Shown here: positions 3,563 to 58,764 of the stretch, piece after piece
Numbering within the stretch: the first letter of the stretch is position 1
How the letters are laid out: every line of letters starts with the position of its first letter
Virus genome (UHGV): UHGV-0318153
DNA: 64,000 bases
From: a virus
Direction: 5' to 3' (one strand)
The notes under the pieces: model-generated
Seen by the model: only the letters and a program-made list of their open reading frames with translations
Told to the model about the DNA's origin: nothing
Databases searched by the model: none
Translations under genes and position numbers: made by a program

Positions 3563-3636
3563 TGACTTCTGACAGACTTTTATATCAATTGTGATAATTT
3601 GTATTACTTTTGTGAGAAAGTCTGTCAGAAGTCAAA
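3563..3636. promoter_or_regulatory. inverted pair of the conserved TCTGACAGACTTT...GTGATA element
   Basis: 19-bp perfect inverted repeat (ttgacttctgacagacttt / aaagtctgtcagaagtcaa) flanking ~35 bp; same motif as at 20068, 41113 and 58731. Confidence 0.5.
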
Positions 3637-3685
3637 TAAATAGCTCATCCTGAATTTTTATATAATATAGAAATAAATAATTGAT

Positions 3686-3883
3686 ATGAAATGTTATAAA
3701 TGTACTAATAAATCTAATAATGTTCTTCTTGTTGCAGCTAATGATATAGAAGAATTACAACGTGTGATAGAACTTGCTGATGATTGTTATGTTTTAAAAA
3801 ATGATTATCATGATGTTACTATTGAGAGAATAAAAGAGTTGAATTATAATACTGATACGGCAACTATAATATTTGAAGTATGA
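3686..3883 (+). CDS. hypothetical protein (65 aa)
   Basis: ORF ~50 nt downstream of the conserved upstream element. Confidence 0.4.
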   Translation: MKCYKCTNKSNNVLLVAANDIEELQRVIELADDCYVLKNDYHDVTIERIKELNYNTDTATIIFEV

Positions 3884-3941
3884 AAAAGATAGATTATAAT
3901 AAAGAAGTGATTGAATATTTTGCTGCTAAATATAAAATAAA

Positions 3942-4403
3942 ATGAAAACAATAGAACAATATAAAGTTCTAAATAAAATATTTGATGATAAAGAGGAAGC
4001 TCTTGAATATGAAAATAGTATTCGTAATAATTTAGAATTAAGAGCTAAAAATCTAAAAGTATTTTATTGGCGTATGTTAGGTTATCCTGGACATTATACA
4101 GCTATTGAACTTATTAATCATTTTTGTCATTATCATAAATTTGATTTTGGCAAATGGAAAGGTGAGTATATTGGAGAAATTATGATGATTTTTCCTAAAT
4201 ATATTGAATGGTGTCTTGAAAATGTTTCTTTTTTTAAACTTAATAAAGAAGAAGAAGCTTTATATAATACTAGTTGGTCTTATAGTGTAGGCGGTGTATC
4301 TTGGGATATTACATTTGATGAAGTTAAAGATATTCCTGGAGATAGATATGACCATGCTTTAATTGATTGGGAAAGAGAACAACTTAAAAATGATACAAAA
4401 TGA
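3942..4403 (+). CDS. hypothetical protein (153 aa)
   Basis: ORF. Confidence 0.5.
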   Translation: MKTIEQYKVLNKIFDDKEEALEYENSIRNNLELRAKNLKVFYWRMLGYPGHYTAIELINHFCHYHKFDFGKWKGEYIGEIMMIFPKYIEWCLENVSFFKLNKEEEALYNTSWSYSVGGVSWDITFDEVKDIPGDRYDHALIDWEREQLKNDTK

Positions 4404-4651
4404 AAAGAAGAATATTAAATATAATTAATGCTGGAATAGCTACTGCTATGTCACATAATAATCCTATATATGGAATTCCTAATAATGATATGATTTTTGT
4501 TCCTAGAAATAGAAAACGTAATATTAGGACTGTAGCTGAAAGTAAGAAATGTAAATCTTGTAAGAAATTTGGTACAGGTCAATGTTATGTTAGATATGTT
4601 AGTCCATTAACTGCCACTTGTGAATATTATCAATCTAAAAGAAAGAAATAA
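4400..4651 (+). CDS. small Cys-rich (putative Zn-binding) protein
   Basis: CxxC..C..C pattern; ATGA start overlap with the preceding gene. Confidence 0.45.
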   Translation: MKRRILNIINAGIATAMSHNNPIYGIPNNDMIFVPRNRKRNIRTVAESKKCKSCKKFGTGQCYVRYVSPLTATCEYYQSKRKK

Positions 4652-4653
4652 TT

Positions 4654-4995: not shown

Positions 4996-4996
4996 T

Positions 4997-5733: not shown

Positions 5734-5737
5734 ATTT

Positions 5738-7949: not shown

Positions 7950-8480
7950 ATGTTTTATATGACTGTTGATACTTGTGTTCATTGTCAGCATTGTATAAAT
8001 AGAATGTTTAATATTGGTCGTATTATTGATATTGGCATAGGATGTATAACTTCTGATATTGTTATTCTTTTGCCTATGTATGGTAATAAGAATTTTCGTA
8101 ATAAATTATTAGAAGATTTAAAAGCTATTTGGCTTGAATATACAGGACGAAATATGCTTGAACAATGTTACATTACATATAATATTAAATGTTCTACTTA
8201 TAATTGTTCATACAAACTTTATGAGAATAGTATGAGTAATTGTCGTAATATATTGAATGAAGAACTTATGAGAGTTCCTTATAGATATATGATTATGATT
8301 AATTCTACTCGTACTATTTTTCCTAATGGTTGTTCTAATAAGATTATCAATTATGGAAAGTATTGTTTTTATAATATAAAATTTCCATTTGATAAATATG
8401 ATGAAGCTGAGGTAAAGAAAGCTATAAAAACAGATTTTGTTAATGCTATAAAATATTATAATATGAGAAGATATACATGA
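7950..8480 (+). CDS. Cys-rich hypothetical protein (176 aa)
   Basis: ORF with several CxxC pairs. Confidence 0.45.
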   Translation: MFYMTVDTCVHCQHCINRMFNIGRIIDIGIGCITSDIVILLPMYGNKNFRNKLLEDLKAIWLEYTGRNMLEQCYITYNIKCSTYNCSYKLYENSMSNCRNILNEELMRVPYRYMIMINSTRTIFPNGCSNKIINYGKYCFYNIKFPFDKYDEAEVKKAIKTDFVNAIKYYNMRRYT

Positions 8481-9757
8481 TAAGAATAGAATGTTATGAT
8501 GTGGAAGTACTTCCTAACTTTTTTAGTATTTGTTTTATTGATTTAGCTAGTTATCTTGATACTTTTAAAGATGTTGTAGATAGTAAAGGAAAACCAATTC
8601 CTATTATCCAAAAAATATCTGTTAAAGAGTTATTACAAAGACTTGATGCTGTAAAATGTAAACAATTTTATATTACAGATAAAGATGATAGTCAGTTATT
8701 TTCAATGATAGAATATATTAATGGATTTAAAGCTAATGAACTTTATCCTCGTAGTGATTTATATGGTTATAATAGTCAAAGTTATGATAATCTTATGATT
8801 GCTGCTTTATTAATGTATTTTGGTCAAACAGATACTACAAAAGAACTTATTACAAAACTTTATGAAACATCAAAAAAGATAATTGAATTACAAGACAATA
8901 AAGATGGTGCTAAGAATGATTTTTTATTAAGAAGTTTGAGAAAATATCCATTACCATTTAAAGGTGTAGATGTTATGAAAATATTTGCTTTGAATAAAGC
9001 TGGAACTATTGTTGATAATAAAACTGGAGAAAAGAAATATGTTCCTAAAGGTTTAAAGCAAACTAGTATTAATCTACAATGGTATGAACTTCTTGAATAT
9101 GAGTTACCTGATATATGTGATAAAGATTATTACTATTATGCAAAAGATACAAGATATAAAGGTTATGATTATAAAAAGCTCACCAATATAATTGATAAAT
9201 GGGATAGATATATAATAGATGAATATATTCCAGATATGATGCATTATAATAAAAATGATGTATTTATTGTTTGTGAAATTGTTCGTCTTAATCCCGATGA
9301 AATTAAATCTCGATATGCTGTTTCTGCTTCTTATAAAGTAGATGTTCTTAATAGTAGTCGTAGTAATATGGCTAATGTTTTATTTCAAAAGTTTTACACT
9401 AAATATAGTGGTATTCCTTATGAAAAATGGAAAGATGGAAGAACTAAAAGAACTGCTATGAATTTAGGTAAGATTATTTTTAATTGTGTTGAATTTAAGA
9501 CACAGCAATTACAAGACTTACTTAAAGAAATAAAAAAGACTACATTATATAGAGTTAGCAAAGATGCTTTTGAGAAAGAAGTTATTATTGGCGATGTTAA
9601 TTATACTCTAGCTACAGGTGGACTTCATAGTAAAGATAGACCAATGGAGATATGGAGTACAACAGATTGGGATATATCTGGCAATTCCTCTACGGGCAAG
9701 CTACAAAAAGATAATGCTTTTACAATTATACATTGGGACATAAGTGACGCAGTGTCG
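8477..9757 (+). CDS. family-B DNA polymerase, exon 1 (3'-5' exonuclease domain and N-terminal half; ends inside motif A ...DAVS)
   Basis: Exo I-like YDVEV, Exo III-like YNKNDVF; terminates in D-A-V-S with the YPSIM remainder of motif A beginning the ORF at 10807. Confidence 0.75.
9685..9705 (+). repeat. dispersed element copy, A orientation, inside DNA polymerase exon 1
   Basis: ttcctctacgggcaagctaca; translated SSTGKLQ (a different frame from the LYGQA copies). Confidence 0.9.
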
Positions 9758-10808
9758 TAATCTCGTGAACTGCTGGAAACTCCTAAAGCTGTTATTACTA
9801 AAACAGAAGATGAAAATCTAAATGGCAATAGTTACGAAAGTAGAAAAGAAATAACAGATGATATATGGAATAATATTCCTAAGTATTTTAATAATGGACA
9901 ATCAGCAGCTAAGACTACTCATTATATTGCGAAATATAATAATAGTAAAGTTCATCGACTATCCGAAAGGAGTACACATTGTTGATAAATGTGGAAGTGC
10001 GAGAAATCTTGTTAATAATATTGCATTTTGAAAAATTAGATATTATCTTTGTCTATATGTTTAATTTTTAATAATATTGATTATGGTAAAATTTAATTTT
10101 TCATTAGTTAAAAAAGAAGTTTATGGTGTTGTTAGAGGTAATGGTGTTATTCCTTATGGAGATTTAGCAAAATACTCTAATGTTATTGGTGTTTATTATA
10201 TTAAATCTAAAACTACTAATAAACAATATATTGGAAGTAGTAAAAATGTACAAAGACGTATTGGAAAACATTTTAGTGAATTAAAATATAATAGACATAG
10301 AGATAAAGATTTGCAAGAAGAATATAATTTATATGGATATTCTAATTTTGAATGCGGATTATATGAAACTTGTAATATAAATGAACTTCTTATTAAAGAA
10401 AAAGAATGGCAAATTAAAATTGGAATAGATAATCTTTATAATCAGAAAATCTCTGGATATTATATTACAGAAGAATTAAGACAAATTCATGCTAGAGCTG
10501 ATAAAAGTTCACATAAAACTAAAGAATATAGAGAAAAAATGAGTAATATAAAAAGTAATTATATAGCTCAATATAATCTTGATGAAACTTTAATTAAAAT
10601 TTGGAATAGTTCTAAAGAAATATGTGATACTCTAGGTTATACTAGAAGTGTAATATTATGTGGATGTAATGGTAGTAAAAAACATCCTTATGGTTATTAT
10701 TGGAGATATTGTGATAGTAAAGGTAATTTATTAGAAAACGGTAGAAAAGGAAAACAAGATTAAGATATAGTCAGGTTCATAGTGAAAGCTATGATGTTAA
10801 TGTGCGTC
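9755..10808 (+). mobile_element. group I intron (IA-like) interrupting DNA polymerase motif A and carrying a GIY-YIG homing endonuclease ORF
   Basis: R-like element GTTCATCGACTATCCG at 9949-9964 and S-like element AAGATATAGTC at 10762-10772 form a P7 (GACTA/TAGTC); P9-like hairpin at 10776-10793; G at 10806 immediately before exon 2; splice junctions uncertain to about +/-3 nt. Confidence 0.7.
10077..10763 (+). CDS. GIY-YIG homing endonuclease (intron-encoded)
   Basis: GVYYIK...YIGSS...R..H..E motif order; C-terminal GYYWRY resembles HEG DNA-binding modules; stop codon overlaps the intron P7 3' strand. Confidence 0.8.
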   Translation: MIMVKFNFSLVKKEVYGVVRGNGVIPYGDLAKYSNVIGVYYIKSKTTNKQYIGSSKNVQRRIGKHFSELKYNRHRDKDLQEEYNLYGYSNFECGLYETCNINELLIKEKEWQIKIGIDNLYNQKISGYYITEELRQIHARADKSSHKTKEYREKMSNIKSNYIAQYNLDETLIKIWNSSKEICDTLGYTRSVILCGCNGSKKHPYGYYWRYCDSKGNLLENGRKGKQD

Positions 10809-11847
10809 TTATTATCCTTCAATTATGGCTGCATATAGTGTTGCACCTGCTCATATGGTTACTAGTGCATTTCGTAATCTTATTCAATGGATGAAAGATA
10901 CTCGTGTTACTGTAAAACATAGTGAAGAAGCAATTATAGATGGTATTCCTAAAGATGTCCTTGCACTTGTATTAAAAATTGTCATTAATAGTATATATGG
11001 TAAATTTGGAGATGAAAATAGTCCACTTTATGATAGACTTGCTACTCTTCAAGTTACTATAAATGGTCAATTAATGATTCTTATGCTTTGTGAAGAACTT
11101 GAACTTAATGGTATTCATGTATTGTCAGCTAATACAGATGGTATTATGGTTAAGTTGTATGAGAAAGATAAAGAATTATTTAATGATATAGCTGATAGAT
11201 GGCAAGAAAAAACTAAAATGAAAGCAGATGCTGATATTCTTCATTGTCTTATAGCAAGAGATATAAATTCGTATATAGCCTTATTTAGAGAAGAAAAGAA
11301 AGGAGTTAGAAAATTAAAGACAGAATTTAAAGGAGCAATGAATCCAGATATGTATCGTATTGACTTACAAAAAGGATATGATAAACCTATTGTTGCTAAA
11401 GCTGTTTATGAGTATTTTATTAATAAAGTTCCTATAATGGAAACTCTTCAAAAAGCTACTAATATTCTTGATTTTTGTATGACTCAAAATGTTGGTAGAC
11501 AATTTCATGTTGAAGAAACGAAAATTGTTAATGGAATGCTTACACGAATAGTTTGTCAGCGATATGTTAGATTTTATATTAGTAATGATGGATATACAAT
11601 AGAAAAAGTTCATAATATTACTAATAGTAGGTCAAGAATGGCAGCTGGAGTTAAAGTTTGTGTTGTTAATACTTTGGATGATACTAATATTAGTTTAAGG
11701 AATATTGATTTTAAATATTATTATAATGAATGTATGAAATTAATAGACCCAATTAAGTTAGGTATTACTCCTAAAGGTAAAGGAAAAAGTAAAATTCGAA
11801 AATTTAGTGGAATGTATAATACTTTATTTGATGATGTAGATGAATAA
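10807..11847 (+). CDS. family-B DNA polymerase, exon 2 (polymerase domain)
   Basis: begins (S)YYPSIM completing motif A; motif B KIVINSIYGKFG (Kx3NSxYG); motif C SANTDGIMV (DTDS-like). Confidence 0.8.
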   Translation, partial: SYYPSIMAAYSVAPAHMVTSAFRNLIQWMKDTRVTVKHSEEAIIDGIPKDVLALVLKIVINSIYGKFGDENSPLYDRLATLQVTINGQLMILMLCEELELNGIHVLSANTDGIMVKLYEKDKELFNDIADRWQEKTKMKADADILHCLIARDINSYIALFREEKKGVRKLKTEFKGAMNPDMYRIDLQKGYDKPIVAKAVYEYFINKVPIMETLQKATNILDFCMTQNVGRQFHVEETKIVNGMLTRIVCQRYVRFYISNDGYTIEKVHNITNSRSRMAAGVKVCVVNTLDDTNISLRNIDFKYYYNECMKLIDPIKLGITPKGKGKSKIRKFSGMYNTLFDDVDE

Positions 11848-13204
11848 AACATATATTGATATAGCTAATAAATGGAGAGAAAATAAATGTAAAGGTTGTT
11901 GCATACTTCTTGAACCTTATAATCCTGCTATATTAATAGAATATATAATGAAAAGAAGTATAGAAAAAAATCCAAATATAAAAGCACTTATTGTAGTTAA
12001 AGATTATGATGTTAGAACTCGTATTGTCAATTATTTAAAAGAAAACAATATAAGTCCTAATAATTATGCTTGTATTACTTCTGTTTATGTAAAAATAGGT
12101 GTACATTATGATTATGATATAGCTTTTTATGTTGGATTAACTGATATGTATCAAGCAAATTATATTAATAGTATAATTAAATATGGATTATTTATTATAA
12201 CAACAGATAAAATTCATCCTGATTCTCGTGCTTATCTTTATAAATATTTTCCTATATTAAATCAAGCTGATTATGCTGCTAAATATGCAACTAAATATAG
12301 CTTGCCCGTAGAGGAAATTCACATTGGAGTACAGTTTGCTAGACAAGATGAAAAAGAATTATATGATAAATATAGTGATTATATAAATAAAACTATTAAT
12401 ATATTTGGTAGCCTTGAAAATATAAATCGTGCTAGAGTAGGAGATAAAACTACAGGTCAATCTGCTGAAGCTGTAAGATTATCTATTGCTCAATATAATG
12501 GTTGGAATGAACATCTTGATGTAACTATACCTTTTAATAAGCAAATAGATGATTTATTTAATCCTATTAGTATAGAAGAAAGATGTTCTACTGCTTATAA
12601 TATTTTTCGTGAACGTAATAATTTAGTAAATAATAATGTAAATAAAATACCTATAATTATAGATTTATTAAATGGAGAATTAAAAGATAAAAAAGTAATA
12701 ATAGTTAGTAAGAATACTATTCTTGCAACAGAAGTTTATAAAGCTCTTAATAAAAATAATATACCATGTGGTGAATTTCATAATGATATTGAAGCTAGAC
12801 CTGTTTATGATGAAAATGTTGGAGATTTTATAAGATATAAGACTGGTAATCGAAAAGGAGAAGTAAAAAACTTCGCCGCACAAGCTATTTCCAGCCTTTC
12901 TGTGCAATCTTTCAACTCAAACAATATTAGAGTATTATCCATTAAAAATTGTTCGTCAGACAGCCTAGAAATCACGTGTGATGCGATTATATTCATGTCA
13001 CCAAATTGTTATAATATAAAAGAGTTCCTATATAGATATAATAAACTTACTTTTAATGTTGATAAAATAAAAATCTATAAATTATATATGATAGGTACAA
13101 ATGAAGAAAATGATTGTAGTCGGCTAAAACCTATTAATGAAAATCATGAAATAAAAAATATTACAGAGAATGAAAAATATTATGTTCAAAGTTTTGGTAG
13201 TTAA
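11840..13204 (+). CDS. hypothetical protein (454 aa), possibly ATPase/helicase-like; locally GC-elevated segment at 12870-12990
   Basis: long ORF; no clean catalytic motif recognised. Confidence 0.5.
   Translation: MNKTYIDIANKWRENKCKGCCILLEPYNPAILIEYIMKRSIEKNPNIKALIVVKDYDVRTRIVNYLKENNISPNNYACITSVYVKIGVHYDYDIAFYVGLTDMYQANYINSIIKYGLFIITTDKIHPDSRAYLYKYFPILNQADYAAKYATKYSLPVEEIHIGVQFARQDEKELYDKYSDYINKTINIFGSLENINRARVGDKTTGQSAEAVRLSIAQYNGWNEHLDVTIPFNKQIDDLFNPISIEERCSTAYNIFRERNNLVNNNVNKIPIIIDLLNGELKDKKVIIVSKNTILATEVYKALNKNNIPCGEFHNDIEARPVYDENVGDFIRYKTGNRKGEVKNFAAQAISSLSVQSFNSNNIRVLSIKNCSSDSLEITCDAIIFMSPNCYNIKEFLYRYNKLTFNVDKIKIYKLYMIGTNEENDCSRLKPINENHEIKNITENEKYYVQSFGS
12297..12316 (-). repeat. dispersed element copy, B orientation
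   Basis: atagcttgcccgtagaggaa; translated SLPVEE. Confidence 0.9.
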
Positions 13205-13258
13205 GAATAATTGCTTATATTTGTCATGTAATCAAAAACAATAAAGCTCTTTGACATT

Positions 13259-19943: not shown

Positions 19944-19985
19944 GAAGTTATTGCTGCTGATAATGATAATGAGTCATTGTCGGCA
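19944..19985 (+). terminator. rho-independent terminator-like hairpin
   Basis: tgctgctgataatga / tcattgtcggcagca (13/15 bp) followed by TTTTT. Confidence 0.5.
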
Positions 19986-20067
19986 GCATTTTTGTTTGTA
20001 TCCAAAATATATCAAAACATGGCTCAGAATAGGTCAGATTTTGCCTGTATTCGATTTTCTATATTGT

Positions 20068-20106
20068 CGTGATACATTGTAAGGATTTTGACAAAAGTCT
20101 GTCAGA
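20068..20106 (-). promoter_or_regulatory. conserved upstream element, reverse orientation (coding strand: CGTGATA...TTTTGACAAAAGTCTGTCAGA)
   Basis: ~115 nt upstream of the 20222 start; same motif family as 3563, 41113 and 58731. Confidence 0.5.
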
Positions 20107-20221
20107 ATGGCTAGAAATGCAAAATAGAAAATTTATTTCTGCCAGATATTTCTTGATTGTTTGTTTTGATAATATTGATAATAATATTATATTTGTTGTG
20201 TAAACTTATAAACTTAAAGAT

Positions 20222-27229: not shown

Positions 27230-27429
27230 TTATGAAAGAAAAAGAAGAACTTGTTATTGTAAAGAAATTTACTTATAATGGTAAAGAACAATTTGCTGTT
27301 CAACAAAAAGCAACTAATGGTAATTATTATACAGTCATTATAATGATAAATGGAAAAAGTGTAGCTGCTGTATATGATAAAGAAACCGATGCTAAAAGAA
27401 TGTGTAATTTATTAAAGAAATTGTTATGA
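27226..27429 (+). CDS. hypothetical protein (67 aa)
   Basis: ORF with ATGA overlap. Confidence 0.4.
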   Translation: MIMKEKEELVIVKKFTYNGKEQFAVQQKATNGNYYTVIIMINGKSVAAVYDKETDAKRMCNLLKKLL

Positions 27430-27705
27430 TATTACCTATAGTTGTTATTGCTATTATTGGATATATAATATCTAAAGTGTTTATTAGAGAAGATGATACT
27501 GAACAAGAACAATCTAATAAATTTGGTTTTGGTATTTTGATTGGAATAATATTATTTATTTTGTTTATTGTTTGGAGAATAGGAGAAACTAATTGAAATG
27601 AAAAGAATAATAGATATTATATTTGTCGGTGTTGTGATTGTTGCTATTATAGCTGGAGTTATTGATGATAACGAATATAGTTGTCGATATAACGACTTAT
27701 TTTAA

Positions 27706-27739
27706 GGCTCTCTGACGCATGATTGTCAAAAATCAATAC
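27706..27739 (+). promoter_or_regulatory. degenerate copy of the TCTGACR...TTGTCAAAAATCAATAC element
   Basis: ggctctctgacgcatgattgtcaaaaatcaatac. Confidence 0.3.
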
Positions 27740-39900: not shown

Positions 39901-41018
39901 ATTTTAGGTATAACAGGTTTATCAAACACCATCATAAATTTATAAGCAAGATTTTTATCTGCTTTTAAATCATTATATAATGTTACAAGACCTTTTAAAT
40001 TTGATTTACGTTTAGCAATATCTGCAATAGAATTTACAAAATTATCTACACTACTTTTATCAGTTTCTGTAAATAATACTCCAGCAAGATATTGTCCATC
40101 CATAAATTGAATAAATCCAGCTTCAGCACCTCTATCATATTGATAAATAGGATTACCTTTTTTATCTAAAGTATAATCAATAGAAATAAGTTTTGGAATA
40201 CTATTAAGTTTATATTTAACAACTTCTTCTATATGTCCTTTAAAATCACTCTTTTCACCAATGTTCAATTCCCATGATTTAGACATATCATCAACAGTAT
40301 CTACATCTTCTGTATTACTTCCTTCCTCTTCTTGACTACCTTTATTTTCATCTTCAACGGCTTCAAATTCTAAATCAATTTGACCATATAATGCAGCAAC
40401 ATCTCGCTTCATTTTTAATTCTTCAATAAATGTTTTATCAGAAAGACTTTCAAATGCAGCAAGTTGATTACGAAGAATATTATTGTCTAATTTTTCAATG
40501 ATATTCTTTAATGCAATAGTTCTTGATGTTTCAGCAATAAGTTTATTATATTCTTCTTTTAATTCATCATTATTATTAATTTCTTTTTTGACATTAAATT
40601 CAATAAATCTTATTAATGTTGATTTAAAATCATTTATAATATCACCTAAAGATTTATATTTATTAGTAGCATTAAATTTATCGTTTGAATAAACTTTACT
40701 AATATTGCTAGCAATAAAATCCAACGCTTCTATTTTAGCAAGTTTACTAGTAAATCTTCCTGTTTGATGTTTATCAATACCTTCTTGTAAAGATTGTAAA
40801 TTCTTTGTTTTAGCATTATAAACTTCTTTCAATATTTCAAATGCTTGTTTAGGAGAAGTTTTAGCATTAATATCTTTTTTATCTAAAGCTTTTTGAAATT
40901 CAGCAGTACCAACTGTAGCTAAATAATCATTATAAAGTTGTGTACCAATAGCAACATTGTTCTCAATATAAGAACGAAGTTTAGGATAATTGTTAAGTGT
41001 AAGATTAGAACAACTCAT
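27996..41018 (-). CDS. giant 4340-aa virion protein, putative virion-packaged RNA polymerase (DFDVD metal-binding-like motif)
   Basis: uninterrupted 13-kb ORF; GSDFDVDSV motif encoded near 36286-36306 resembles the NADFDGD double-psi-beta-barrel catalytic loop; six in-frame dispersed-repeat copies. Confidence 0.5.
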   Translation of the reverse strand: MSCSNLTLNNYPKLRSYIENNVAIGTQLYNDYLATVGTAEFQKALDKKDINAKTSPKQAFEILKEVYNAKTKNLQSLQEGIDKHQTGRFTSKLAKIEALDFIASNISKVYSNDKFNATNKYKSLGDIINDFKSTLIRFIEFNVKKEINNNDELKEEYNKLIAETSRTIALKNIIEKLDNNILRNQLAAFESLSDKTFIEELKMKRDVAALYGQIDLEFEAVEDENKGSQEEEGSNTEDVDTVDDMSKSWELNIGEKSDFKGHIEEVVKYKLNSIPKLISIDYTLDKKGNPIYQYDRGAEAGFIQFMDGQYLAGVLFTETDKSSVDNFVNSIADIAKRKSNLKGLVTLYNDLKADKNLAYKFMMVFDKPVIPKIETYYDYQGGYQVRISNLSSNPTEIVVNDIKLGIKNADETTLQKFNIDIKDATIENVHEALKLIVPDIDYQSLQNMADNYKDEYKSLLYNIATISKIISDTINNKNNYIEKLSKGEDVSDLNSFIPDSYLPFIYEFSKKIAPYTNVKVNLNSRNGANNLSSDVINRSYLTNFPLIFSSEEAIEAYARQKFAGTGYNYSNVLIERVSSTGKLQPGLFRKVGDVYKLTEYANELVKISLVNGSADRRTNTSVLYKDMSKGDYLLTGLMNYVKNEEKTVVINGQEHKFATANFFMSIPSDAPKTFVATMPILSLDGLYKYNEEQYNKFRQEATNKVNALNVIDLKDEKYTDWLTNKLNIISSKNLVDLINGEKINIPVDVNKYYKVGNNSPSFAFVDKHGAKYAITGQLKEINGQFYLANAIIKGLISDGQVTKTQVNNSKLAYINNQIYLLQRQNIGIEFDINHPVVDALRNIIYQEILDAYTSARRIFKEDANGNLIMSEGQLVLKDDYNANELYLNYEKNRNGKVYDIVDGKYVLTGAVFKLSDLNSKFADVSLYHNLMGNGKVIDVLYGDREKRVKVENGKIVFDTNYQSIVDNAINETIKTYLDSYLKNATNYLRGEFSTFLENFSDENIREYLINTIINQVNYDHLFNGKSKFYKGNQDVLKRLKEIQAGGSPFGVVDFTRTSTDPAKIVQETIDMPTADGKKAVIDYTTKEPIKLYDKFKAVTVYNTNKTSKQEVIDRLEKQLNKAKLSEETKASLLKPFKDEKTKTNDAQSYITQEEWIRRITAAGELNKYASLIEALTNDTPIEEIDWTAFENKVPIQKNFYYDLYYDTKTGIEVPRQIKNAEFVLLPKLIKGTELEQVYNAMKEIGIDQLNTIETSKAANHNIITLWDNDGNIHLDEFKEQARDVIEPYSYNYLYRQQEVPEHMVDEENKAGIQILKKMLDNLPNDEHHNNLVNKFFNNYTANIKQSFVEVATELGIELDNSGNIKLKDGAIVGLNRKVFLQLVKENMAKNGADRVLMEFLDTALEGSDQLPLIMNNVSTKLENVTNALFNKRITRQTIEGWHAAQLSDFGFTVDKDTVKDSEYLANHEAEHNHKLEYRKQGEINGIPVYYAEIRLKRWSNALYRTIKQEDGTTKKIPIDINEVPEDLRTMIGYRIPTEGKQSIVIMKVVEFLPDAYGSTVVVPDEWVTQTGSDFDVDSVYAMTKHITLNKDGKVIEPTENDYPLNEKGYIRYIKDNVGMAARKALSKYNGQIESSIKFIKDKEKEDRKKLNEDYQAKILKSLDNRFKDKYNIYQLAKETKDKELHKIIQAIGKKEDGISSKEYIDSAIERLYNLKESGEIQNQTKILDNVYDTYIATQELFDSQEDDNVALSETNRNKIKDVIEENTKEQLNEAEKFANDNNLPNYVSWLSLPVEERVSRDVRNNNIVQTFIDILNSPAAFEENMGISQFSNLAEANSWMKKIANISNKYVIDDKSYGNHDAVTQLDWKESASSGIKLKAISVNLDTFASIGNRTKIRLPFAIPVRYDKETIDKQKIGEKNRFGKVENNVINFTNQGWSEDNKNVEGYLLTPYSSQTTAHILDVMKEGAIHNENTYTFNAFKVMINAGIDYKTAISFMYQPAMDNLVKYWNESQSFANSEYINPLSKALDDAATALGITTDGKNMSDLASAVYRKYNEKGYITNVYGDVGFPIIDRELNVKRFSNEMTEEEKKIHDFMVLLQFNKLNQLGSIVNNTLSILTADKFGAKPSYYATDRIFRQIDDILTNDNKLYAENKKGEIVPVVEAIYPGISKGINTFAKSDIKNSSYPSLAAMLKYSSVTALKVGQQVFETAEPNFVELIYDIAKYTKNGKLSEKLYNDYKKYLVKRLYVNDNNPAIIYPIALDDDGSVLIKQSSTGKLQIDIENEMSRIAGIGSEYTKNIDFKIADINNPTKEEVLAFAKLSPAQKVLYIKENFDNIGIFDFISVNKFNEFTIKQKGYISNELKLNQGNYTNDYLYDLFDLAYLSSNPIIRLAAIDLVKYTYVVEGNNFKVGNIARAISTLPLKPTNVGGMNIGFSTKLAFDNYRFITPTANVSEKLIIGFVRQNYDDFPARFVDVDKIIKKNVNHAQDIEFNNDGSITVYTYDTANTKDFNKLGLLNKDEAYKIIKIRRGNTAKLYYGINHIEDVTYYPLNKLDEIDTNKTIEDSSIARNNVYKSLFDIVYGYKSEKLAEQYALYKDKFVGATEITIDETNNINEALAIANNNFFDKPQLILRNTGFTGDKLIINNAINGKKYVATKITEEVADRLRGNTSNLYQDYIDFLDEYPNYKPESDYGILPVVEYGKRYSSIGERDAASFAIKQTVAIARQESFGGNKLAESMMKILNNANINYKDTKEIANNLPVASSTVAKFVKATADRLIYDAYHFTIDEDGNELKLNDARVIERVLKDNNLERKFITLINTITSFKDRYSFRDINIEGYDEDTKAALETIKEAINKLNNDTIVLQAKRSYWGEFINSSTTNPNIKSGLQDALTFYGDTGFFDLNIQDIAFNHNQLVQAVVGESQAIIKEGEFRGKIEAQQFAKMLSDLKAEAAKNGKSIDWNKIVDENGRLVQPNNKEWFEMKDKLNKEYIKAVDETKDKFSVKALRAKLEYDAFIAATTESQFIPIKDIDIDGNEVMVDYTRETIANQYAVLYNKNPKVAELYAEYKRLMKEQSDILSNIIGNTPTEEQDEKIHQIYLKLRLMTSDFDDNYEIKDDEDLTAARTLYAFIDRNRYLKELFFDRNIKVGFEEQLNNALKTISDIEGARDHEGRLLIPMNILMQNKEYRKAKAWLRANAMYKPDADFINEINACLTAFNDPTISKTSALNIAIEQANARDEFGILDGRKFTAEQIERIKKETVRNFHFSKRSGLPYAGILRSQDDDVVIYEYEFYDNLRNDKVKSEDEIEDIEAINKILDKVWDSTARVLNTGSDKLTMDDLNKLSKLLELYDLDKTKNKKAAEFIAEECVITYNNAAYEADRARAYKNGDEWYQAWKKVFETVDDEGNVVPNTIFYGVLKPKDESKWVNKNKTDYIRLINKHVQNTKTQYYYEVMRTNRDNMSKEEFKKWYFDNHYYNPYSRQYEPLKIWTHTEYIDESGNKAKGKWEARINQTDLEPNKDYLNEKYDKNYPTYKEGSTYKAKQEDGTRKEVSYDNSNYKALNEYELKLLNNLKKIMMQYAFTDSNKYYVKQGYLPSISKEKEFDYKDIFKEAMAFIGISSNIPTDTKWQDLENITYNTDEEKDNPMLQMLLDRNSSKYVEVPHFPKPGESEAEFIKRKQEAKDVNAKIREENEKIHNQLINKDWENVFKSFIINSARYDAIRLIKGKLYAADDALLSYDAYKLNYKNELIQDYRLSAESEVEYKTESNRNTSAQLRNYIRRVVRDTYKNNTNPQLLKFASIAQNMAGTKYMMLNITGGIANILTGQTNLAAERFAREYFNEKDWIVGQNLYVGGAISYMSNMYNDKSTTLQDGIIKLANVVDYDRIAELTANDIKGNIKKLRGLLFTPQTAGEHYMQNTVLLTMMKNHRIIKDADGNVKIVSFEMFKREKELEALMIVLNEEERDAYDKFFNDILADENRRANYNMFNDNVITDFIRTHLTKERMIEFVRKRKELMKEAKKKFEELPDVYSQFELVDDYANLKADADIELKDFAKLVEKVIKVNKKVHGVYDKIGAAKIENEWWGGIVMQFHKHLYPGFKKRYRRHGYYDEVLETIEKGAYNSLMQFINTPYHLTKYKRSQEELDTLQAIQEYCKNAISFITHIKLNYNLLSENERANIRRAYADFVYTGAAVVTAIALTAIAGGDKDNEESIWYNLLMYQADRLASEAFAFTPIGLASEGEKLWSSPVAIWQSGDDLLKGLAFGVQTLIDNGFEGEYKTGRYAGENKLKVIIGRNIPVYRNIQRIIELPDNNSYYKLGDNALSVIPVKKIGEWIRK
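32910..32930 (+). repeat. degenerate dispersed element copy (TTCCACTACGGGCAAGATACC)
   Basis: minus-strand gene reads ILPVVE. Confidence 0.7.
34176..34197 (-). repeat. dispersed element copy, B orientation (CTGTAGCTTGCCCGTAGAGGAT)
   Basis: giant gene reads SSTGKLQ. Confidence 0.9.
35631..35650 (+). repeat. dispersed element copy, A orientation
   Basis: ttcctctacgggcaagctta; giant gene reads SLPVEE. Confidence 0.9.
39267..39288 (-). repeat. dispersed element copy, B orientation
   Basis: ctgtagcttgcccgtagaggat; giant gene reads SSTGKLQ. Confidence 0.9.
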
Positions 41019-41055
41019 ATTAGTAAGTATTTAATTAATAATATTAATAACAACA

Positions 41056-41102
41056 TCATGTTCTGACTATGACAAATTGAAAAATTGATGCCTTGTCAGA
41101 AC
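41056..41102. other. 13-bp perfect inverted repeat (atcatgttctgac / gtcagaacatgat) in the 5' leader of the giant gene
   Basis: arms at 41056-41068 and 41090-41102. Confidence 0.5.
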
Positions 41103-41112
41103 ATGATTTTTA

Positions 41113-41146
41113 GGCTGTCTGACGGACTTTTATCAAAAATTGATAC
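41113..41146 (+). promoter_or_regulatory. conserved upstream element (GGCTGTCTGACGGACTTTTATCAAAAATTGATAC) ~95 nt upstream of the 41018 start
   Basis: near-identical to the copy at 58731-58764, which is similarly placed upstream of the 58586 start. Confidence 0.5.
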
Positions 41147-41149
41147 ATA

Positions 41150-44100
41150 CTACATACAATACATAGAAAGTTCGCCAGTGGTCAGCATTTGGCGTGCAGT
41201 GGCTTGTAATGATGGTGAAATGTTATTGACAACCGAATTGAAATTTGTTATTTGTCGCTCATCAATAGAACTAAATGCAAATCTATCATCAGCAAAATCA
41301 TCTTCAACATTATTATCTTCTTGCACATTATTGGCATTTATTTCTTCTTGTTTTTCTTCTTCAACTTTATTTATATCTTGTTCATCTTTGAAATCTAATG
41401 TTGTTTGAATAACTTTTTTCGGTTGCGTTCTTTTACTTCTACTTTTAGTTATCTTATTAAGCAACATCATTTCTCTGTATAACAAAGAATTTCTATCAAC
41501 TTCAATACCAAGCATATCTGCTATTACAAGTAATAATTCTTGAAATAAATTCTTTACTTTATCTTTAAATCTACTACTTGCTGGTATCTTATTTAAAGCT
41601 GACATTAAATCTCTATTAGTTAAAGACTCAACAAGAAATTCTTCAAGATTAATATCTCTATCTTGACTTATATCAATAAATTGTTTTAGATATGGTAAAT
41701 CTTCATTATTAGGTTCTTTCTTTTCTAATTCTTCAACATATTGTTTATATCTATTATATATATCTTCAATAATATTTAATGCTTTTTCTTTATTATAAAT
41801 TGTATCAAGTTGTTTATGTAGACTTTCATGAATGATAGTTCTAATTAATCTACCATAATTCATATTACCAATACGATTACCATTTAAAGTAATTTCTTTT
41901 GTATTAATATCATACAAAGCATATATAGGTTTTGCTTCTGTATCAATTATATTATCAATATTAATAACTTCTGGTAATATACCAATACGTTCTAATGCTT
42001 CAATATATTCCAACACTTCATTGTTATTACGAAACATTTCACGTAAAGCATTATTAGTTTTATTAATAGCTAATTGTTTAATAACAAATTCTGCATTAAC
42101 TTTGTTATCTAATAAATTAGCTGTATTAACCCAACTTGTTTCATCGGCTTTAAATACAACTTGAACTGTTGTTAAATTAGTTTTATGAAATATTCCACTA
42201 ATAGTATTATCTTCATTTTTTGGTAAATTTTGTAAATTAGTTGAAAGAAAATTATTACTAACAAGAAAATCTTGATAACTATTAAATTCTTTACTAACTT
42301 TACCAACAGATATTATTGTTTTACCATTTTCTCTTTTATAATATTTTGTAGCAACAGGTATTTTAACTTTATCATTTATAAAACTAAATGGAATACCAAT
42401 TGTAGCATTTGTAAATAAATTATTAATATTTTTCTTTAATTCATTTTGAATATATTCATCATTAATAGTTCTTATTGTAGCACCACGAGCTTTATCGGTA
42501 ATATTATATTTAGTATCTTCAATACTATTTATTTGTAATTTTCTACCACTAGCATCATCATAAATACTAAATAGCCATTTATTATCTTTAGTTTGAAAAC
42601 CAATACTATTACCTCTTCTACCAGGTTTTACATTTATATTAATTAAACCGCTATTGCCTGTTAAAGCAAATACATCATTAGAGAATTGTTTAAAACTATA
42701 AGTATTATCTGATATAAATCTAGTAATAATGTTCTTTAACTCTTCTTGTGTAGCATCTATTAATTGTTTACCGAATGGACTAATATCATTACTTGATAAT
42801 TCTTTTTGATAACAATAAGCATAACTAGTTTGTCCATTTTCTCTAGGTATAGCAATCATAGTCATACCAACAATAGGATAACCATTAACAATATTTGGAA
42901 CAAGAGAATTAGCAAATTGTAAATTATTAGGTTTAGTAATTGTAACTAATGGATATTTATCTTCATTATAATCATCTATTACTTTTGTTATATTATTTAA
43001 TTTAGATTTATCTTTTGGGTCTGATAAATTAATTGTTCCTTTATATAATTTATCAATAACAAATTTACCTTTAGCTTTTTTAGTTGCAACAACATGTGCT
43101 TGAGCATAACTATTAGCTAATTTATTAAACCAATTATTAACACTTTCTTCTATATTAAAATTATCTGCCGCAACTCTAGCATAAAGTTTTCCAATATGCA
43201 TTACAATATTTTCTATTTGCTTTTCTGCTTCTTCTTGTATTTCGCTTAATGTTTGTCTAAAATTAATAAATTCTGGATAACTAGATAATTCTGTAAATAT
43301 TTGGTCACGATAAATTTTAACATCATCTTTTTTATTTCTAGAAAAAGCAAATGCTCTTAAAGCAGACTCTAAATCTTCGGTTGGTTCAGTAAATACTTTT
43401 AATATAAAGTCTTTTAATTTACTTTTAGCAAAACTTTCATTTAAAGCAATGTCATATAACCAACCTTCATTAGTAGTTCTATAAACACCTTCATTATCTA
43501 TTTGTGGTACACCAAGATAACCAACAAAATTTCCATCTTTTCTTAATATAATTCTACCAAGATAAGTATCATATTCATATTCTAATTCATCGCCAGGATT
43601 TAATTTTGTTATAGTTTCAAAATCAGTATCATCAATATTAGCATTATTTGGAATATATTCTTCAAGTTTAGCTTTTTCTCTACTTGTTAATGTTAATAAT
43701 CTATTTTTATATTGTTCTTTGCTAAGATTTAATATTGTATCATTATCAGTTAATACATATTCTGTATTATTTTTACTATATATAAATGATTTAATTTCAT
43801 CATATAAAAATTCTGCTACTAATCTATTATTAGATAAATTATAAATATATTGTGTTAAAGTATCAGCGTTAATATAAGTTTTACCTTTTATAGTACGACC
43901 ATAAGTTTTACCATTATCTGCTTGCTTTTTAGCAAATTCTTCTAATATAGCAATTATATGTCGTTGTTTCTTATTAGGTTTTTTCTTAATAATAGACAAT
44001 GTAGCATTTTTCAATAAAACTCTATCACTTTCTGATATAGCACTTTGTAATTGATTATTATCACCAAATACAGCTAAATCATCAGTAAAAGCGCTAATAG

Positions 44101-51937: not shown

Positions 51938-52045
51938 TGTTATAAAAATTAATCATTCTCATGCGTTCTAAGCGATTTTCTGACATCGACCTTTGCAATT
52001 AATCAATCGAAAAAAGATAATCGCTTAGACGCAAAAAGAATGTGG

Positions 52046-52744
52046 TTAGTATTTGCGTTTTGACCTATTTCGGAATACTGATTTGCCACCTGCACGGAAT
52101 CTCATAGTCGGCATATTATTTTGTCCATTATTGGTAACAGCACTAGTTCCAACATATTGTGCATTATTTTGTCCAACTTGTTTACCTGTATAACTATTAG
52201 CAATAGATTTATCTACTTCAAGATTAGCAACTACAGGGTTATGATATTTAAGTCTATCACTATAATCAAGTTTATAAGCTGGAACTCCAGTTTGAGCAGT
52301 CGCAGCAGATATAATATTTCCAATACCACTATCAACAGCTGAAGCTATACCAAACCATGCTTTTTGTCTATCACCACATTTGCATTTCTTTTTACCACCA
52401 TATCGCATAAATCTATTCTTAAATTCTTTATTAATATCGGCAGTAGTTCCATACGCTTGTGTTAAACTTTGCGCACTTTGTATTCCAACTTTTTGAGCAG
52501 AAAGTTCATTTTGTTGTTTATTAAGTTCTTCTTGCGCTTCAACTTCTGCAAGTTGTTGTTGGTAATTAGCATCAATTTGGGCTTGAGCATTTGCCATTTG
52601 TTGATTAATAGCAGCTTGTTGATTTGCAGCTTGTATTTTTGCAGCTTGCGCTTGTGCTTGTGCTTGTTTTTTTTGTTTACGAGCACCTATAATACCACTA
52701 ATAATACCAAATAATGCTTTTTGTCTTTTACATCTATTTTTCAT
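52046..52744 (-). CDS. Gln/Ala-rich coiled-coil protein (232 aa)
   Basis: QAQAQAQAAKIQAANQQAA... low-complexity helix-former; two CxC pairs. Confidence 0.5.
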   Translation of the reverse strand: MKNRCKRQKALFGIISGIIGARKQKKQAQAQAQAAKIQAANQQAAINQQMANAQAQIDANYQQQLAEVEAQEELNKQQNELSAQKVGIQSAQSLTQAYGTTADINKEFKNRFMRYGGKKKCKCGDRQKAWFGIASAVDSGIGNIISAATAQTGVPAYKLDYSDRLKYHNPVVANLEVDKSIANSYTGKQVGQNNAQYVGTSAVTNNGQNNMPTMRFRAGGKSVFRNRSKRKY

Positions 52745-56178: not shown

Positions 56179-56999
56179 TATCCTCTAGGTTTAAATGTAT
56201 AATTATAAAAATAATTTTGCCATTCTTTAGTATCAATATCTCCTTGTATTGTATTAATAACACTTGCCTTAGCTTTACTCTTTAATTGCATCCACATATA
56301 ATAAGGATTAGTACCATATTGACTAGCATTAAGATTAAATACAGGATGTTTCATACCACGACATAACATCTTATACATACAATAATAAGCAAGTGCTTCT
56401 ATAAGATTGCCATCGTTTGGAATAACAGGTATTTCTTCTTGAAAATATTCACTATATTGAGTTTCAACTTCAAGATTTTCTATATAAATATAATCAGTAT
56501 TAAAATTTAATTCAATATGATTAGCATCTACTAGCACATAGTTTCTTTCCTCTACGGGCAAGATATAACGGTCAAATGTTATATTTCTTTTATTAATATC
56601 ATCATCGTTATTATGAACAGCAATACTTTCTCCATAAGTAACATCAGACATACCAGAAACTATAGACATTGTATCAGATAGTTCTTCATTATCTGTCTGT
56701 AGCTTGCCCGTAGGGAACTGACAGCCACAATCAACTTTGTCATTTATATTAGCAATAGCACATCCTCTTTTATCATAAACTTTTAATTCATTATTAATTA
56801 TATTACAAGGACTATATGCTATTCTATTATTAACATTAAGTTTTCGTTTTTTCTTAATAACAGAAAGTATTTTTAATTGTTGCATAGCATCAACACACCA
56901 TGCAGGAACTCTATTAATCCAATCACTATTATCAGGATTGAAATCGTTGTCTATTTTTGCGATTATAGACTCCATTGGTAAATTTGTCTTGTTCAGCAT
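56178..56999 (-). CDS. hypothetical structural protein (273 aa) carrying two in-frame repeat copies
   Basis: ORF. Confidence 0.5.
   Translation of the reverse strand: MLNKTNLPMESIIAKIDNDFNPDNSDWINRVPAWCVDAMQQLKILSVIKKKRKLNVNNRIAYSPCNIINNELKVYDKRGCAIANINDKVDCGCQFPTGKLQTDNEELSDTMSIVSGMSDVTYGESIAVHNNDDDINKRNITFDRYILPVEERNYVLVDANHIELNFNTDYIYIENLEVETQYSEYFQEEIPVIPNDGNLIEALAYYCMYKMLCRGMKHPVFNLNASQYGTNPYYMWMQLKSKAKASVINTIQGDIDTKEWQNYFYNYTFKPRG
56547..56567 (+). repeat. dispersed element copy, A orientation
   Basis: ttcctctacgggcaagatata; gene reads ILPVEE. Confidence 0.9.
56697..56718 (-). repeat. dispersed element copy, B orientation
   Basis: ctgtagcttgcccgtagggaac; gene reads FPTGKLQ. Confidence 0.9.
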
Positions 57000-57894
57000 T
57001 TCGTATAAAGTTTAAATAAGACATCTTATCATGTTTAAGTAATATTCCTAATTTATGCGTTATATCACAATTAAGAGCATATATTTCTTCTTTATTTTTA
57101 CATTTACTAGCAATTTCTTCTTGTGTCATTCCACGTAAATTAGCATTTATAGTTTTAATACGTTCAAATTCTGTACTAGTTTTTCGACCAACATATCGAA
57201 GCGTCATTTCTAATTTATAATAATAATTATCTCTTTTATAAGTAATATATTTAACACCATTATATTTAACACCATGTAATTTTGCTATTTCAGCATCTTC
57301 TTTATTATAAGGAATCAAACCTTTAGCACGAATTTCATCTAATTTAGTTTTAGTAGCTTTAAGGTCTGCCATTCTTTTATCTTTTTTACAACCATCAGTT
57401 TTATATCTATTAATAAGAAATTCAATCTTTTCATCAGCAAAAGAATACATATATCCTTCTAATAAACATTTATGAACCCCATATCTATAATAATTATAAA
57501 CAATTCTTTTATATTCAGCAAAACTTAAATTTGCTCTTTTATCAAGTAATACTTTTTTCTTTAATAAGATATGAACTCTTTTTACATCATTAAGATATAC
57601 ATTTAAATTATATAAAACACTACTATTAGAATTATATGCTTCTCCATGACGCATTAATTGTATAACTTCTAATCGTAATTCTTTATTTAATATTCCATCT
57701 TTTATTTCTGGATAATCATCAAGATTAATATCAAAAGTTTTCTTTATATAATCTTTTTTAGAAAAGACAATTTCTTCATGTCTATTTTTTACTTCTAAAG
57801 CTAGTTTTAATTCTTGTTCGACTTTTGTTTTAACATCATTAGTTTCACTTTGAAACTTAGTATAAAAATGTTGCAAATCTATTTCTACTTTCAT
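56932..57894 (-). CDS. hypothetical protein (320 aa)
   Basis: ORF. Confidence 0.5.
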   Translation of the reverse strand: MKVEIDLQHFYTKFQSETNDVKTKVEQELKLALEVKNRHEEIVFSKKDYIKKTFDINLDDYPEIKDGILNKELRLEVIQLMRHGEAYNSNSSVLYNLNVYLNDVKRVHILLKKKVLLDKRANLSFAEYKRIVYNYYRYGVHKCLLEGYMYSFADEKIEFLINRYKTDGCKKDKRMADLKATKTKLDEIRAKGLIPYNKEDAEIAKLHGVKYNGVKYITYKRDNYYYKLEMTLRYVGRKTSTEFERIKTINANLRGMTQEEIASKCKNKEEIYALNCDITHKLGILLKHDKMSYLNFIRNAEQDKFTNGVYNRKNRQRFQS

Positions 57895-57899
57895 AATTA

Positions 57900-58586
57900 T
57901 TATTTAATTAAATTATCTACAGGTGTTTCATTAGTTTCTCTAGGAACTTGAAGCATATTGCGTTTAAATATAACATCTTTAATACTACCAATCATATCTT
58001 CAGGAAGAAGAAATTCATTATCATCTAATTCATCATTATCTTTTATATAATCTCCTTCAACATCTATTGTTTCTGTTTGTATCAAATGTGGATATTCAAA
58101 TACACTTTCAATAATAATATTTTCAGCATTTCTTATATTATCATTATCTCCGTATATATAAATATAACCATTAACATAATCATAAACAGGAGTTTTACAA
58201 AAACCAGCTAAAAGATGATAAAATTTAGCAGTAGCTTCTTTTGCAAACGATATACTTCTATTACCATATCCAATAGTTCTAACAGATAAAAAAGGCATAC
58301 CATTGGTTAATCTAACAGGAGTAGGCACTTTATTCTTACTACGTTTAATAGCAGGAATTAATAATTCACCACTACCATAAACATCTCCATCAGGAACATC
58401 TATAATTTCTATTCTAAATCTTTGTTCTAGACCTTTGTCTATTACTCTGTTAGTACCATAACTTTTTCTTATTAATTCATTGCGAGTATGAATAATAGCT
58501 TGACGAATGTTACGTCTTAAAGGTACATTATTAGGTTGACCAACAGCATGAGTTATTTCACTAATTAATTGATTTAAAGTTGCCAT
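57900..58586 (-). CDS. hypothetical protein (~228 aa; start set at MATLNQ)
   Basis: the N-terminal 32 codons of the ATG-maximal ORF are low-complexity M/L/I and overlap the upstream element, so the internal start was preferred. Confidence 0.5.
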   Translation of the reverse strand: MATLNQLISEITHAVGQPNNVPLRRNIRQAIIHTRNELIRKSYGTNRVIDKGLEQRFRIEIIDVPDGDVYGSGELLIPAIKRSKNKVPTPVRLTNGMPFLSVRTIGYGNRSISFAKEATAKFYHLLAGFCKTPVYDYVNGYIYIYGDNDNIRNAENIIIESVFEYPHLIQTETIDVEGDYIKDNDELDDNEFLLPEDMIGSIKDVIFKRNMLQVPRETNETPVDNLIK

Positions 58587-58730
58587 ATCATCATGTATTA
58601 AGTTTATCACAAAACTATTATTGATAACGAATAACATTATGTCATTAACCATCATTAACAACATTAATAACATCATTATCAATATTATTATAAAATAAAA
58701 ATAATTGCTACTATCGCTGACGCATTCTCA

Positions 58731-58764
58731 GACTGTCTGACGGACTTTATCCAAATCGTGATAT
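58731..58764 (+). promoter_or_regulatory. conserved upstream element (GACTGTCTGACGGACTTTATCCAAATCGTGATAT)
   Basis: matches 41113-41146; preceded by a partial copy (gctgacgcat) at 58712-58721. Confidence 0.5.

Follow-up and report, generated by a model that had tools for sequence, protein, structure and literature searches.

What is the short sequence that recurs at the module boundaries of the virus genome UHGV-0318153, and what does it do there? An earlier note on this locus had described an element of ~35 bp and proposed it as a phage-specific promoter or as an operator for a phage regulator. We analysed the whole stretch of DNA concerned, 64,000 nucleotides in length (hereafter the window), and find that the recurring motif is one arm of a ~120-bp unit, whose two arms vary in sequence between copies and clades while staying complementary within each copy. 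We tentatively read this unit as a phage-specific promoter cassette. The window belongs to a crAss-like phage and shares its gene order with p-crAssphage (Carjivirus communis, BK010471; Intestiviridae, Crudevirinae), with ~75-78% nucleotide identity, only over the few conserved stretches aligned by BLAST, and 30-50% protein identity for the genes compared. Its rightward genes, up to ~27.7 kb, form the replication module; the leftward genes, from 27,996, comprise the gene for a 4340-aa virion RNA polymerase (RNAP; 27996-41018), then RNAP-associated and tail genes. p-crAssphage and its close relatives belong to the most abundant human gut viruses.

The recurrence itself is not a product of chance. 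The 13-base core AAAGTCYGTCAGA, counted with one mismatch allowed, has five matches in the window, all of them exact (3568-3580, 41118-41130, and 58736-58748 on the minus strand; 3617-3629 and 20094-20106 on the plus strand), against 0.13 expected, and none of 100 shuffles reached five. With three mismatches allowed, the count in the window (33 versus 26.9 expected) is not above chance. In the copies of this lineage, the core turns out to be the 3' arm of the larger unit. In the consensus alignment, the unit reads AAC-N5-CGTAGA-N8-TTCTTTTG, followed by a 5' arm, an AT-rich centre, the 3' arm, and a TTAAAAT box. The centre consists of ~45 conserved nt (ATTTTCATATAT..ATGATTAATCTATCACGAT) and then ~8 variable nt; the 3' arm terminates in GAGCC in the consensus, and the TTAAAAT box is near-invariant, with its "AA" present in all 73 aligned copies. 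The stem measures 13-20 bp, encloses a centre of ~45-50 nt, and ends ~10 nt before TTAAAAT, while conservation in the alignment of copies spans ~95-120 nt. Sequence conservation resides in the AT-rich centre and in the TTAAAAT box, neither of which the earlier note singled out. By eye, TATCACGAT contains something close to an IHF-type site (WATCAANNNNTTR), from which we draw no conclusion.

These features emerged from a profile built on the window copies and run in iterated nhmmer searches against ~170 related IMG/VR loci, which had been collected by aligning the p-crAssphage proteins dNMP kinase, gp46, and RecT; 109 hits were obtained in 77 loci, and final copy coordinates and bit scores were taken from a covariance model (CM). 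Searching the loci with the dNMP kinase as a single protein returned just two near-identical relatives, and scanning the collection with the core plus four N and CT (14 specified bases) gave ~120 single matches on unrelated contigs, essentially what chance provides. As the exact core is absent from p-crAssphage, the motif had at one stage been considered not conserved, a conclusion that the profile searches overturned: the element is conserved, with different arms, and the profile retrieved diverged p-crAssphage copies upstream of gp10, gp26, and gp47.

At the position of the 13-mer, relatives carry TTCAGCAGAGAGC, TGCCGTGACGAGC, TCGCATGGCGAGG, or AATCGCTTAGAACGC; each of these can pair with the upstream arm of its own copy, and the pairs that we observed include GCTCTCTGTTGAA/TTCAGCAGAGAGC, GCCCGTCATGGCA/TGCCGTGACGAGC, GCCCGTCATGCGA/TCGCATGGCGAGG, GACTTCTGACAGACTTT/AAAGTCTGTCAGAAGTC, and GCGTCTAAGCGATT/AATCGCTTAGAACGC. 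The earlier proposal of a promoter or operator thus stands in part: a cis-element tied to gene starts does exist, but the 13-mer is not its conserved recognition sequence, because of these substitutions, and the label "promoter" fits at best the whole cassette.

We evaluated the pairing across 73 distinct copies, for a 17-pair stem and with 500 shuffles. Paired cells amount to 77.8%; shuffling lowers this share to 68.3%, and sliding the partner column lowers it to 37-42%. Compensatory cells number 141 versus 59 in shuffles, and the covariation score is 0.376 versus 0.205 for shuffled and at most 0.12 for slid columns. None of the 500 shuffles reached the observed values, and 12 of the 17 pairs changed on both sides. 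RNAalifold, without any imposed structure, recovered the same stem only, with six of its eight pairs covarying, and detected no structure in the 45-nt centre. The first copy of the window and that of a close relative (L213) differ by an A-T to G-C double change. Within-copy arms form 10.7 Watson-Crick pairs out of 17, versus 9.0 between copies, a modest contrast, as many arms share a consensus; the column-wise test is the more informative one. Single-sequence folds pair the arms in three window copies described below (c1, c7, and c4) and in p-crAssphage copies (z -3.4 and -9.0), and leave them unpaired in two others (c2 and c6).

The CM identifies six full-length copies in the window, and nhmmer adds a partial one that lies within a gene. 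The earlier note had listed a copy at 3568-3596 with an inverted partner at 3605-3630, which are in fact the two arms of a single element, c1 (3532-3655, plus strand; CM 66.5 bits, E 5.5e-11), located upstream of a 65-aa open reading frame (ORF; 3686-3883). The c1 arms (3562-3580 and 3617-3635) constitute a perfect 19-bp inverted repeat, followed by a TAAAT box (3637-3641), and the RNA fold reaches -38.9 kcal/mol (z -8.7). Copy c2 (20010-20132, plus strand; CM 60.1 bits) lies upstream of the dNMP kinase gene (20222), with its left arm at 20043-20058, its right arm at 20094-20106, and a TAGAAAT box at 20112-20118. Its stem is weak (7 of 17 Watson-Crick pairs), and the closing stem is missing from the minimum-energy fold (z -0.8).

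On the leftward side, c3 (41092-41245, minus strand; CM 52.1 bits) precedes the 4340-aa virion RNAP gene (start 41018) and is conserved in loci L155-L158. Its left arm (41183-41167) lies within the 3' part of the preceding ORF (stop 41152-41150), and its right arm (41130-41113) is followed by TAAAAAT (41112-41106). The leader after c3 contains, as had been reported, a perfect 13-bp inverted repeat (ATCATGTTCTGAC / GTCAGAACATGAT; 41055-41107, minus strand), in which 41107-41095 pairs with 41067-41055 and the GTCAGA/TCTGAC hexamer is reused. Copy c7 (51941-52065, minus strand; CM 66.5 bits), upstream of the gp47 homologue (ATG 51937), had been overlooked; it is a full copy whose arms differ in sequence (52032-52019, GCGTCTAAGCGATT; 51977-51963, AATCGCTTAGAACGC), with TGAGAAT at 51961-51955 and an RNA fold z of -4.2, and it occupies the most widely conserved location. 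Despite its different arms, c7 retains TGTCAGA adjoining the right arm.

Copy c4 (58710-58832, minus strand) has the highest score (CM 91.8 bits) and lies upstream of a tail ring protein gene (CrAss_Ring_2, PF25702). It shows CGTAGA at 58818-58813, a left arm at 58801-58784, a right arm at 58748-58731, and TGAGAAT at 58730-58724; its RNA fold pairs the arms (z -3.1), and a BLAST comparison with GenBank phages returned no match for it. IMG/VR contigs are the only known source of the window lineage. The gene that follows (57900-58682, minus strand) matches the Pfam family CrAss_Ring_2 (tail ring protein 2) with an E-value of 6.6e-54 from residue 38 onwards, which supports ATG 58586 as its true start. 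The syntenic p-crAssphage gene is labelled "IHF subunit" in BK010471, an annotation that is probably outdated.

Two further copies are of another kind. The sequence at 27706-27739, formerly taken for a degenerate copy, belongs to a full-length and high-scoring one, the orphan c6 (27685-27829, minus strand; CM 70.5 bits), located beyond the end of the giant RNAP gene and the terminator of that gene, and present also in a close relative (L301). Its arms lie at 27760-27776 and 27706-27723 (plus-strand coordinates) and its TTAAAAT box at 27705-27699. Copy c6 is antisense to small plus-strand transmembrane ORFs (27426-27705) and to a 270-aa ORF (26417-27229), and could drive an antisense RNA. The 270-aa ORF occupies the position of RepL in p-crAssphage and has no Pfam match. 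Finally, for the copy reported within an ORF at 12930-12966, the similarity is real (nhmmer E = 0.002, model positions 61-95), but not the full element: c5 (12942-12976, plus strand) comprises only the right arm and TAGAAAT, that is the right-hand third of the unit, inside a SNF2-like ORF (11840-13204). The shared bases are the codons D-S-L-E, common only to the p-crAssphage lineage (L001 12418) and absent from 72 of the 80 other RecT loci, so that c5 is probably a coding-constrained similarity. Its interpretation as a conserved internal promoter is rejected as unproven, the similarity being one of shared codons in two lineages only.

Two regularities of position had been claimed for these copies. 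The constant orientation toward the downstream gene is borne out (3686 and 20222, plus strand; 41018 and 58586, minus strand), and co-orientation extends to all window copies except the orphan c6. The distance to the start codon, given as 50-110 nt, is approximately right: we measured ~57, 116, 100, and 150 nt from core to ATG. The last value would shrink to 54 nt with TTG at 58682 as the start, but 58586 is preferred because of the position of the Pfam match.

Relatives reveal the same arrangement. The complete p-crAssphage genome carries four copies detected by the CM, upstream of gp10, gp26, gp38, and gp47 (BK010471, 5009-5131, 19564-19686, 26307-26429, and 52735-52859), and none in its late module (~45 kb). 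The earlier note named absence of the motif upstream of orthologous genes as a refutation; this did not occur, as the gp26, gp47, and gp10 homologues of relatives all carry the element. It is on the gene strand in 57 of 57 copies at gp46 loci and 39 of 39 at RecT loci. The copy that precedes gp47 and thereby heads the RNAP operon is present in 48 of 58 gp46 loci. By contrast, only 26 of 80 RecT loci harbour the element, which is therefore limited to p-crAssphage-like clades, and the CM has no match in a half-genome of phage phi14:2 (L293; 50 kb, with middle and late modules). Copies are intergenic in 96 of 101 cases, and TTAAAAT is separated from the next ATG ORF by a median of 37 nt (interquartile range 35-47). 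Many copies end only ~25 nt short of the ATG, which leaves no room for a promoter further downstream; a promoter would have to be part of the element or precede it. At gp47 loci (L159-L171, L200-L205, and 52040-52065 in the window), the AAAC..CGTAGA block overlaps the stop codon and the lysine/arginine-rich C-terminal tail of the gp48 homologue; coding and non-coding constraints therefore coincide there.

Outside these phages the element is scarce. The conserved 19-mer of the centre occurs in 7 of 185,579 species genomes, always in contigs of metagenome-assembled genomes (MAGs), none of which is titled Bacteroidales, and this search thus did not find the element in bacterial chromosomes. The contigs concerned (L294-L300) include some of ~70-98 kb, in MAGs labelled Lachnospiraceae, Clostridia, or "bacterium", and shorter ones in MAGs labelled Mycoplasma and Rhodospirillaceae; several, at 89-98 kb, have the size of a crAss-like phage genome. 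The CM finds the full element in L296, L297, and L298. Most likely, these contigs are mis-binned crAss-like phage genomes and not host chromosome. The element also appears to be new to the literature, as our literature search retrieved no earlier account of it. GenBank crAssphage records annotate no feature at its position, and Rfam 15 yields no family match at the gathering threshold over the whole window; in E-value mode, c4 has no match, and a p-crAssphage copy has only generic long-hairpin miRNA-type matches far below the threshold.

Could the element simply be a host-type promoter? Pattern searches and the alignment agree with the earlier note that it does not fit the Bacteroidetes consensus TTTG-N19-21-TAnnTTTG. 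No column block of the 73-copy alignment fits TAnnTTTG; the T run before the 5' arm is TTCTTTTG, GTCTTTTG, or TTTGTTTG, without A (c1 alone has TACTTTTG); and the spacing from TTT(C/G) to TTTG inside the element is constant at 23 nt, versus the 19-21 nt required. Ahead of the CGTAGA block we found neither a -35 nor a -33 box, and inside the element no host-type promoter. Host-type promoters do exist nearby. A full consensus match is located outside the element at 13193-13223, another (TTTG-N19-TATATTTG; 20165-20195, plus strand) lies between c2 and ATG 20222, and TAnnTTTG boxes are found at a typical distance, 25-35 nt, before five rightward starts (621, 10077, 13259, 20222, and 26417). Such boxes precede p-crAssphage late genes too. 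At c2 and c4 the element stands in tandem with a host-type box, upstream of it. As host-type promoters are separate in the same genomes, the element constitutes a second, distinct class of upstream signal. The presence of host-type boxes in the replication module, which is reportedly transcribed by the virion RNAP in phi14:2, implies that the temporal or polymerase assignment may differ in the window lineage.

Nor is the element an intrinsic terminator, as its 3' arm is followed by CCTTAAAAT, without a U tract, and a terminator scan calls only 19952-19988 and 27829-27867. The first of these (19952-19998, plus strand) is a 16-pair stem followed by a T run, which ends the upstream unit ~30 nt before c2, and the p-crAssphage orthologue of c2 is likewise preceded by a terminator. 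A new transcript must therefore start there. The second is a very strong stem-loop at the convergence of the modules, adjoining c6 (27829-27875; 18 pairs and a T run), which is probably the terminator of the rightward module and possibly bidirectional.

Position, orientation, the upstream terminator, the short and fixed distance to the start codon, and the near-invariant TTAAAAT box together point to a transcription-start cassette. We therefore favour, with somewhat less than even confidence, the reading that the element is a phage-specific promoter cassette whose action involves the formation of a hairpin, and which may be used by a virion RNAP that depends on single-stranded DNA (ssDNA). Such a cassette would head operons, including that of the virion RNAP and several units of the replication module. 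The 3' arm and TTAAAAT would make up the core promoter; transcription would start a few nucleotides further on and give a ~30-nt leader. A phage factor or the polymerase would bind the conserved centre, and pairing of the arms, as a hairpin or a cruciform that keeps the AT-rich centre open, would be part of activation or regulation. A narrower version, which we consider doubtful, is that the element is the promoter of the crAssphage two-barrel virion RNAP itself, the arms clamping a ~45-nt AT-rich bubble in single-stranded form with the help of supercoiling and single-stranded DNA-binding protein (SSB), and thereby offering an ssDNA-dependent polymerase a defined point of entry. If true, it would represent a structural promoter class distinct from the sigma-type and N4-type ones, in the phage lineage that is most abundant in the human gut.

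Several observations weigh against the promoter cassette. Its promoter function is inferred from position only, and c6 has no gene to drive, as a search found no ORF for ~2 kb downstream. In all clades, little of the stem is left in the copies that precede gp26 (c2 among them), although they retain the conserved sequence, and pairing is therefore not indispensable. TTAAAAT differs from the Bacteroidetes -7 box. A loop of 45-50 nt is far larger than that of any known extruding promoter hairpin (3 nt in phage N4), and duplex DNA would extrude it only at a high cost. Covariation of paired arms is, moreover, the classic signature of RNA structure. Finally, the RNAP operon of phi14:2 is transcribed by the host RNAP, not by the virion RNAP (bioRxiv 10.1101/2020.03.07.982082).

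The covariation leads directly to the strongest alternative, which we regard as possible but the less probable one, namely a cis-acting RNA element. The arms would then pair in the leader or in a polycistronic mRNA, and act as a processing site, a 5' stabiliser, or a polymerase-modifying or antitermination signal before very long operons. Compensatory changes in the stem and the RNAalifold consensus are what such an element predicts, as are the strong fold z-scores of c1, c4, c7, and the p-crAssphage copies, and the strict sense-strand orientation; a stem of 13-20 bp is also compatible with an RNase III-type processing site. Compact loci fit as well: there, the gp48-gp47 intergenic region consists entirely of the element, with no terminator before it, and the 5' arm of c3 lies inside the upstream ORF, so that an RNA spanning both arms must exist if the genes are co-transcribed. 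In addition, the stem has decayed precisely in the gp26-upstream copies, which stand behind a terminator, where read-through would be lowest. There are also further complements of the right arm downstream of c3 (41055-41107) and c2 (20138-20150), involving TCTGAC/GTCAGA and TTCTGCCAGAT versus GTCTGTCAGAA; to judge from these sequences, they would allow attenuator-like alternative pairings of the right arm.

Other observations speak against a functional RNA. At the family level, wobble events on the sense strand show no clear bias of G.U over A.C (30 G.T versus 21 A.C). Both the 45-nt "loop" and the flanks show sequence conservation but no predicted structure, which is unusual for a processing hairpin, and the element matches no Rfam family. 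No recognisable promoter is found upstream of the 5' arm, as the region lacks a -33/-7 pair and is partly coding, and the missing U tract argues against termination as the function.

We consider it improbable that the element is an operator, where a phage repressor or activator would bind inverted repeats of the GTCYGTCAGA type. The right arms of the window lineage are indeed more alike than pairing demands, 11 of the 19 GTCAGA occurrences fall within the 1.2 kb of element regions (0.36 expected), and c7 keeps its TGTCAGA beside the right arm. However, the arms differ within a single genome (GCTCTCTGTTGAA, GCCCTACATTGAA, and others in p-crAssphage) and between clades, and are nevertheless complementary, which a single binding specificity cannot explain, and the half-sites would be ~60 bp apart. 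This makes a regulator that reads an operator of fixed sequence unlikely.

Still less probable is an ssDNA replication signal, such as a priming site or an ssi-type stem-loop on the lagging-strand template. As orientation flips with the divergent modules, the element would always be on the lagging-strand template if replication started at the divergence point, which would also explain the orientation of the orphan c6; the short and fairly constant distance to start codons, the absence of copies from the ~45-kb late module of p-crAssphage, and the terminator-element-gene arrangements do not fit this explanation. Least probable of all is a selfish miniature inverted-repeat transposable element (MITE) spreading within the genome: the unit is short, has terminal inverted repeats, and is present in several copies, some of them extra in the window lineage relative to p-crAssphage (c1, c3, c4, and c6, one of them an orphan), but its centre is conserved and its "terminal repeats" variable, the reverse of a MITE, its copies are co-oriented with genes and occupy orthologous positions in clades with proteins only 30-50% identical, and its 19-mer occurs in only the few MAG contigs described above. 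A MITE census states that its viral matches are unrelated to crassphages (PMC11602168).

Conserved, structured, and located before the RNAP operon and several replication-module units, the element is a concrete candidate for a phage-specific layer of control, distinct from host-type promoters; should it be an RNA element instead, it would define a new family of phage cis-regulatory RNAs. The CM could be used as a marker of transcription-unit boundaries in uncultured Crudevirinae genomes.

One side observation concerns the replication module of the window. The region at 8477-11847 contains three ORFs (8477-9760, 10077-10763, and 10825-11847), whereas p-crAssphage has at this position a single gene (gp16) encoding a 775-aa family B DNA polymerase. 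A gap of 316 nt within the window region contains a TAnnTTTG box. It could be a polymerase region that is split, replaced, or intron-containing.

How does the element compare with known systems? Like Bacteroidetes sigma-A promoters, it is AT-rich, located upstream of genes, and contains TTTG strings, and c1 happens to hold TACTTTTG; unlike them, it has no -7 box TA in its family consensus, and its spacing is 23 nt instead of 19-21. The RNase III sites of phage T7 and the put RNA of phage HK022 resemble it as repeated, covarying stem-loops located a few tens of nucleotides before start codons, at the operon or gene-block boundaries of a lytic phage. T7 RNase III sites and HK022 put antitermination RNA are compact hairpins, and their loops are not long conserved sequences. 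The element differs from both in its long conserved loop, and shows neither sequence similarity to them nor an Rfam match.

Another comparison is with the crAss-like phage phi14:2. Its virion RNAP (gp66) uses only ssDNA templates in vitro, and no early promoter motif was found; this enzyme reportedly transcribes the early genes, which make up the replication module, and the host RNAP transcribes the middle and late genes from a tripartite motif (bioRxiv 10.1101/2020.03.07.982082). The middle promoters that we read upstream of g070, g075, g108, and g110 consist of an A tract and TTTG-N20-TAnnTTTG, the standard Bacteroidetes consensus. They resemble the element in position, upstream of RNAP-module and tail or "IHF" genes, but the tripartite motif (A tract, TTTG/TTGCAT, and TAnnTTTG ~20 nt later) is absent from the element alignment, and the stem of the element covaries.

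The hairpin promoters of phage N4 provide the remaining comparison. An N4 hairpin has a stem of 5-7 bp and a 3-nt loop, is centred at -11, and occurs in three copies at the genome end that is injected first, whereas the stem of the element measures 13-20 bp, encloses a conserved centre of ~45 nt, and stops ~10 nt short of a -10-like box, and its copies are spread across two modules. The N4 polymerase is T7-like and unrelated to the two-barrel enzyme of crAss-like phages; its promoter recognition takes place on single-stranded or supercoiled DNA and depends on gyrase and SSB. N4 hairpins conserve some of their stem bases and leave the others free to vary while pairing is kept (PMC4496689). Similarly, the inverted repeat of the element keeps its pairing while part of the stem sequence varies, and both systems involve a giant RNAP that is packaged in the virion and requires a single-stranded template (gp66 in phi14:2). 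By analogy, we infer that the N4 virion RNAP promoters may serve as a model for the pairing of the arms, which would fit a crAss-like virion RNAP acting only on ssDNA.

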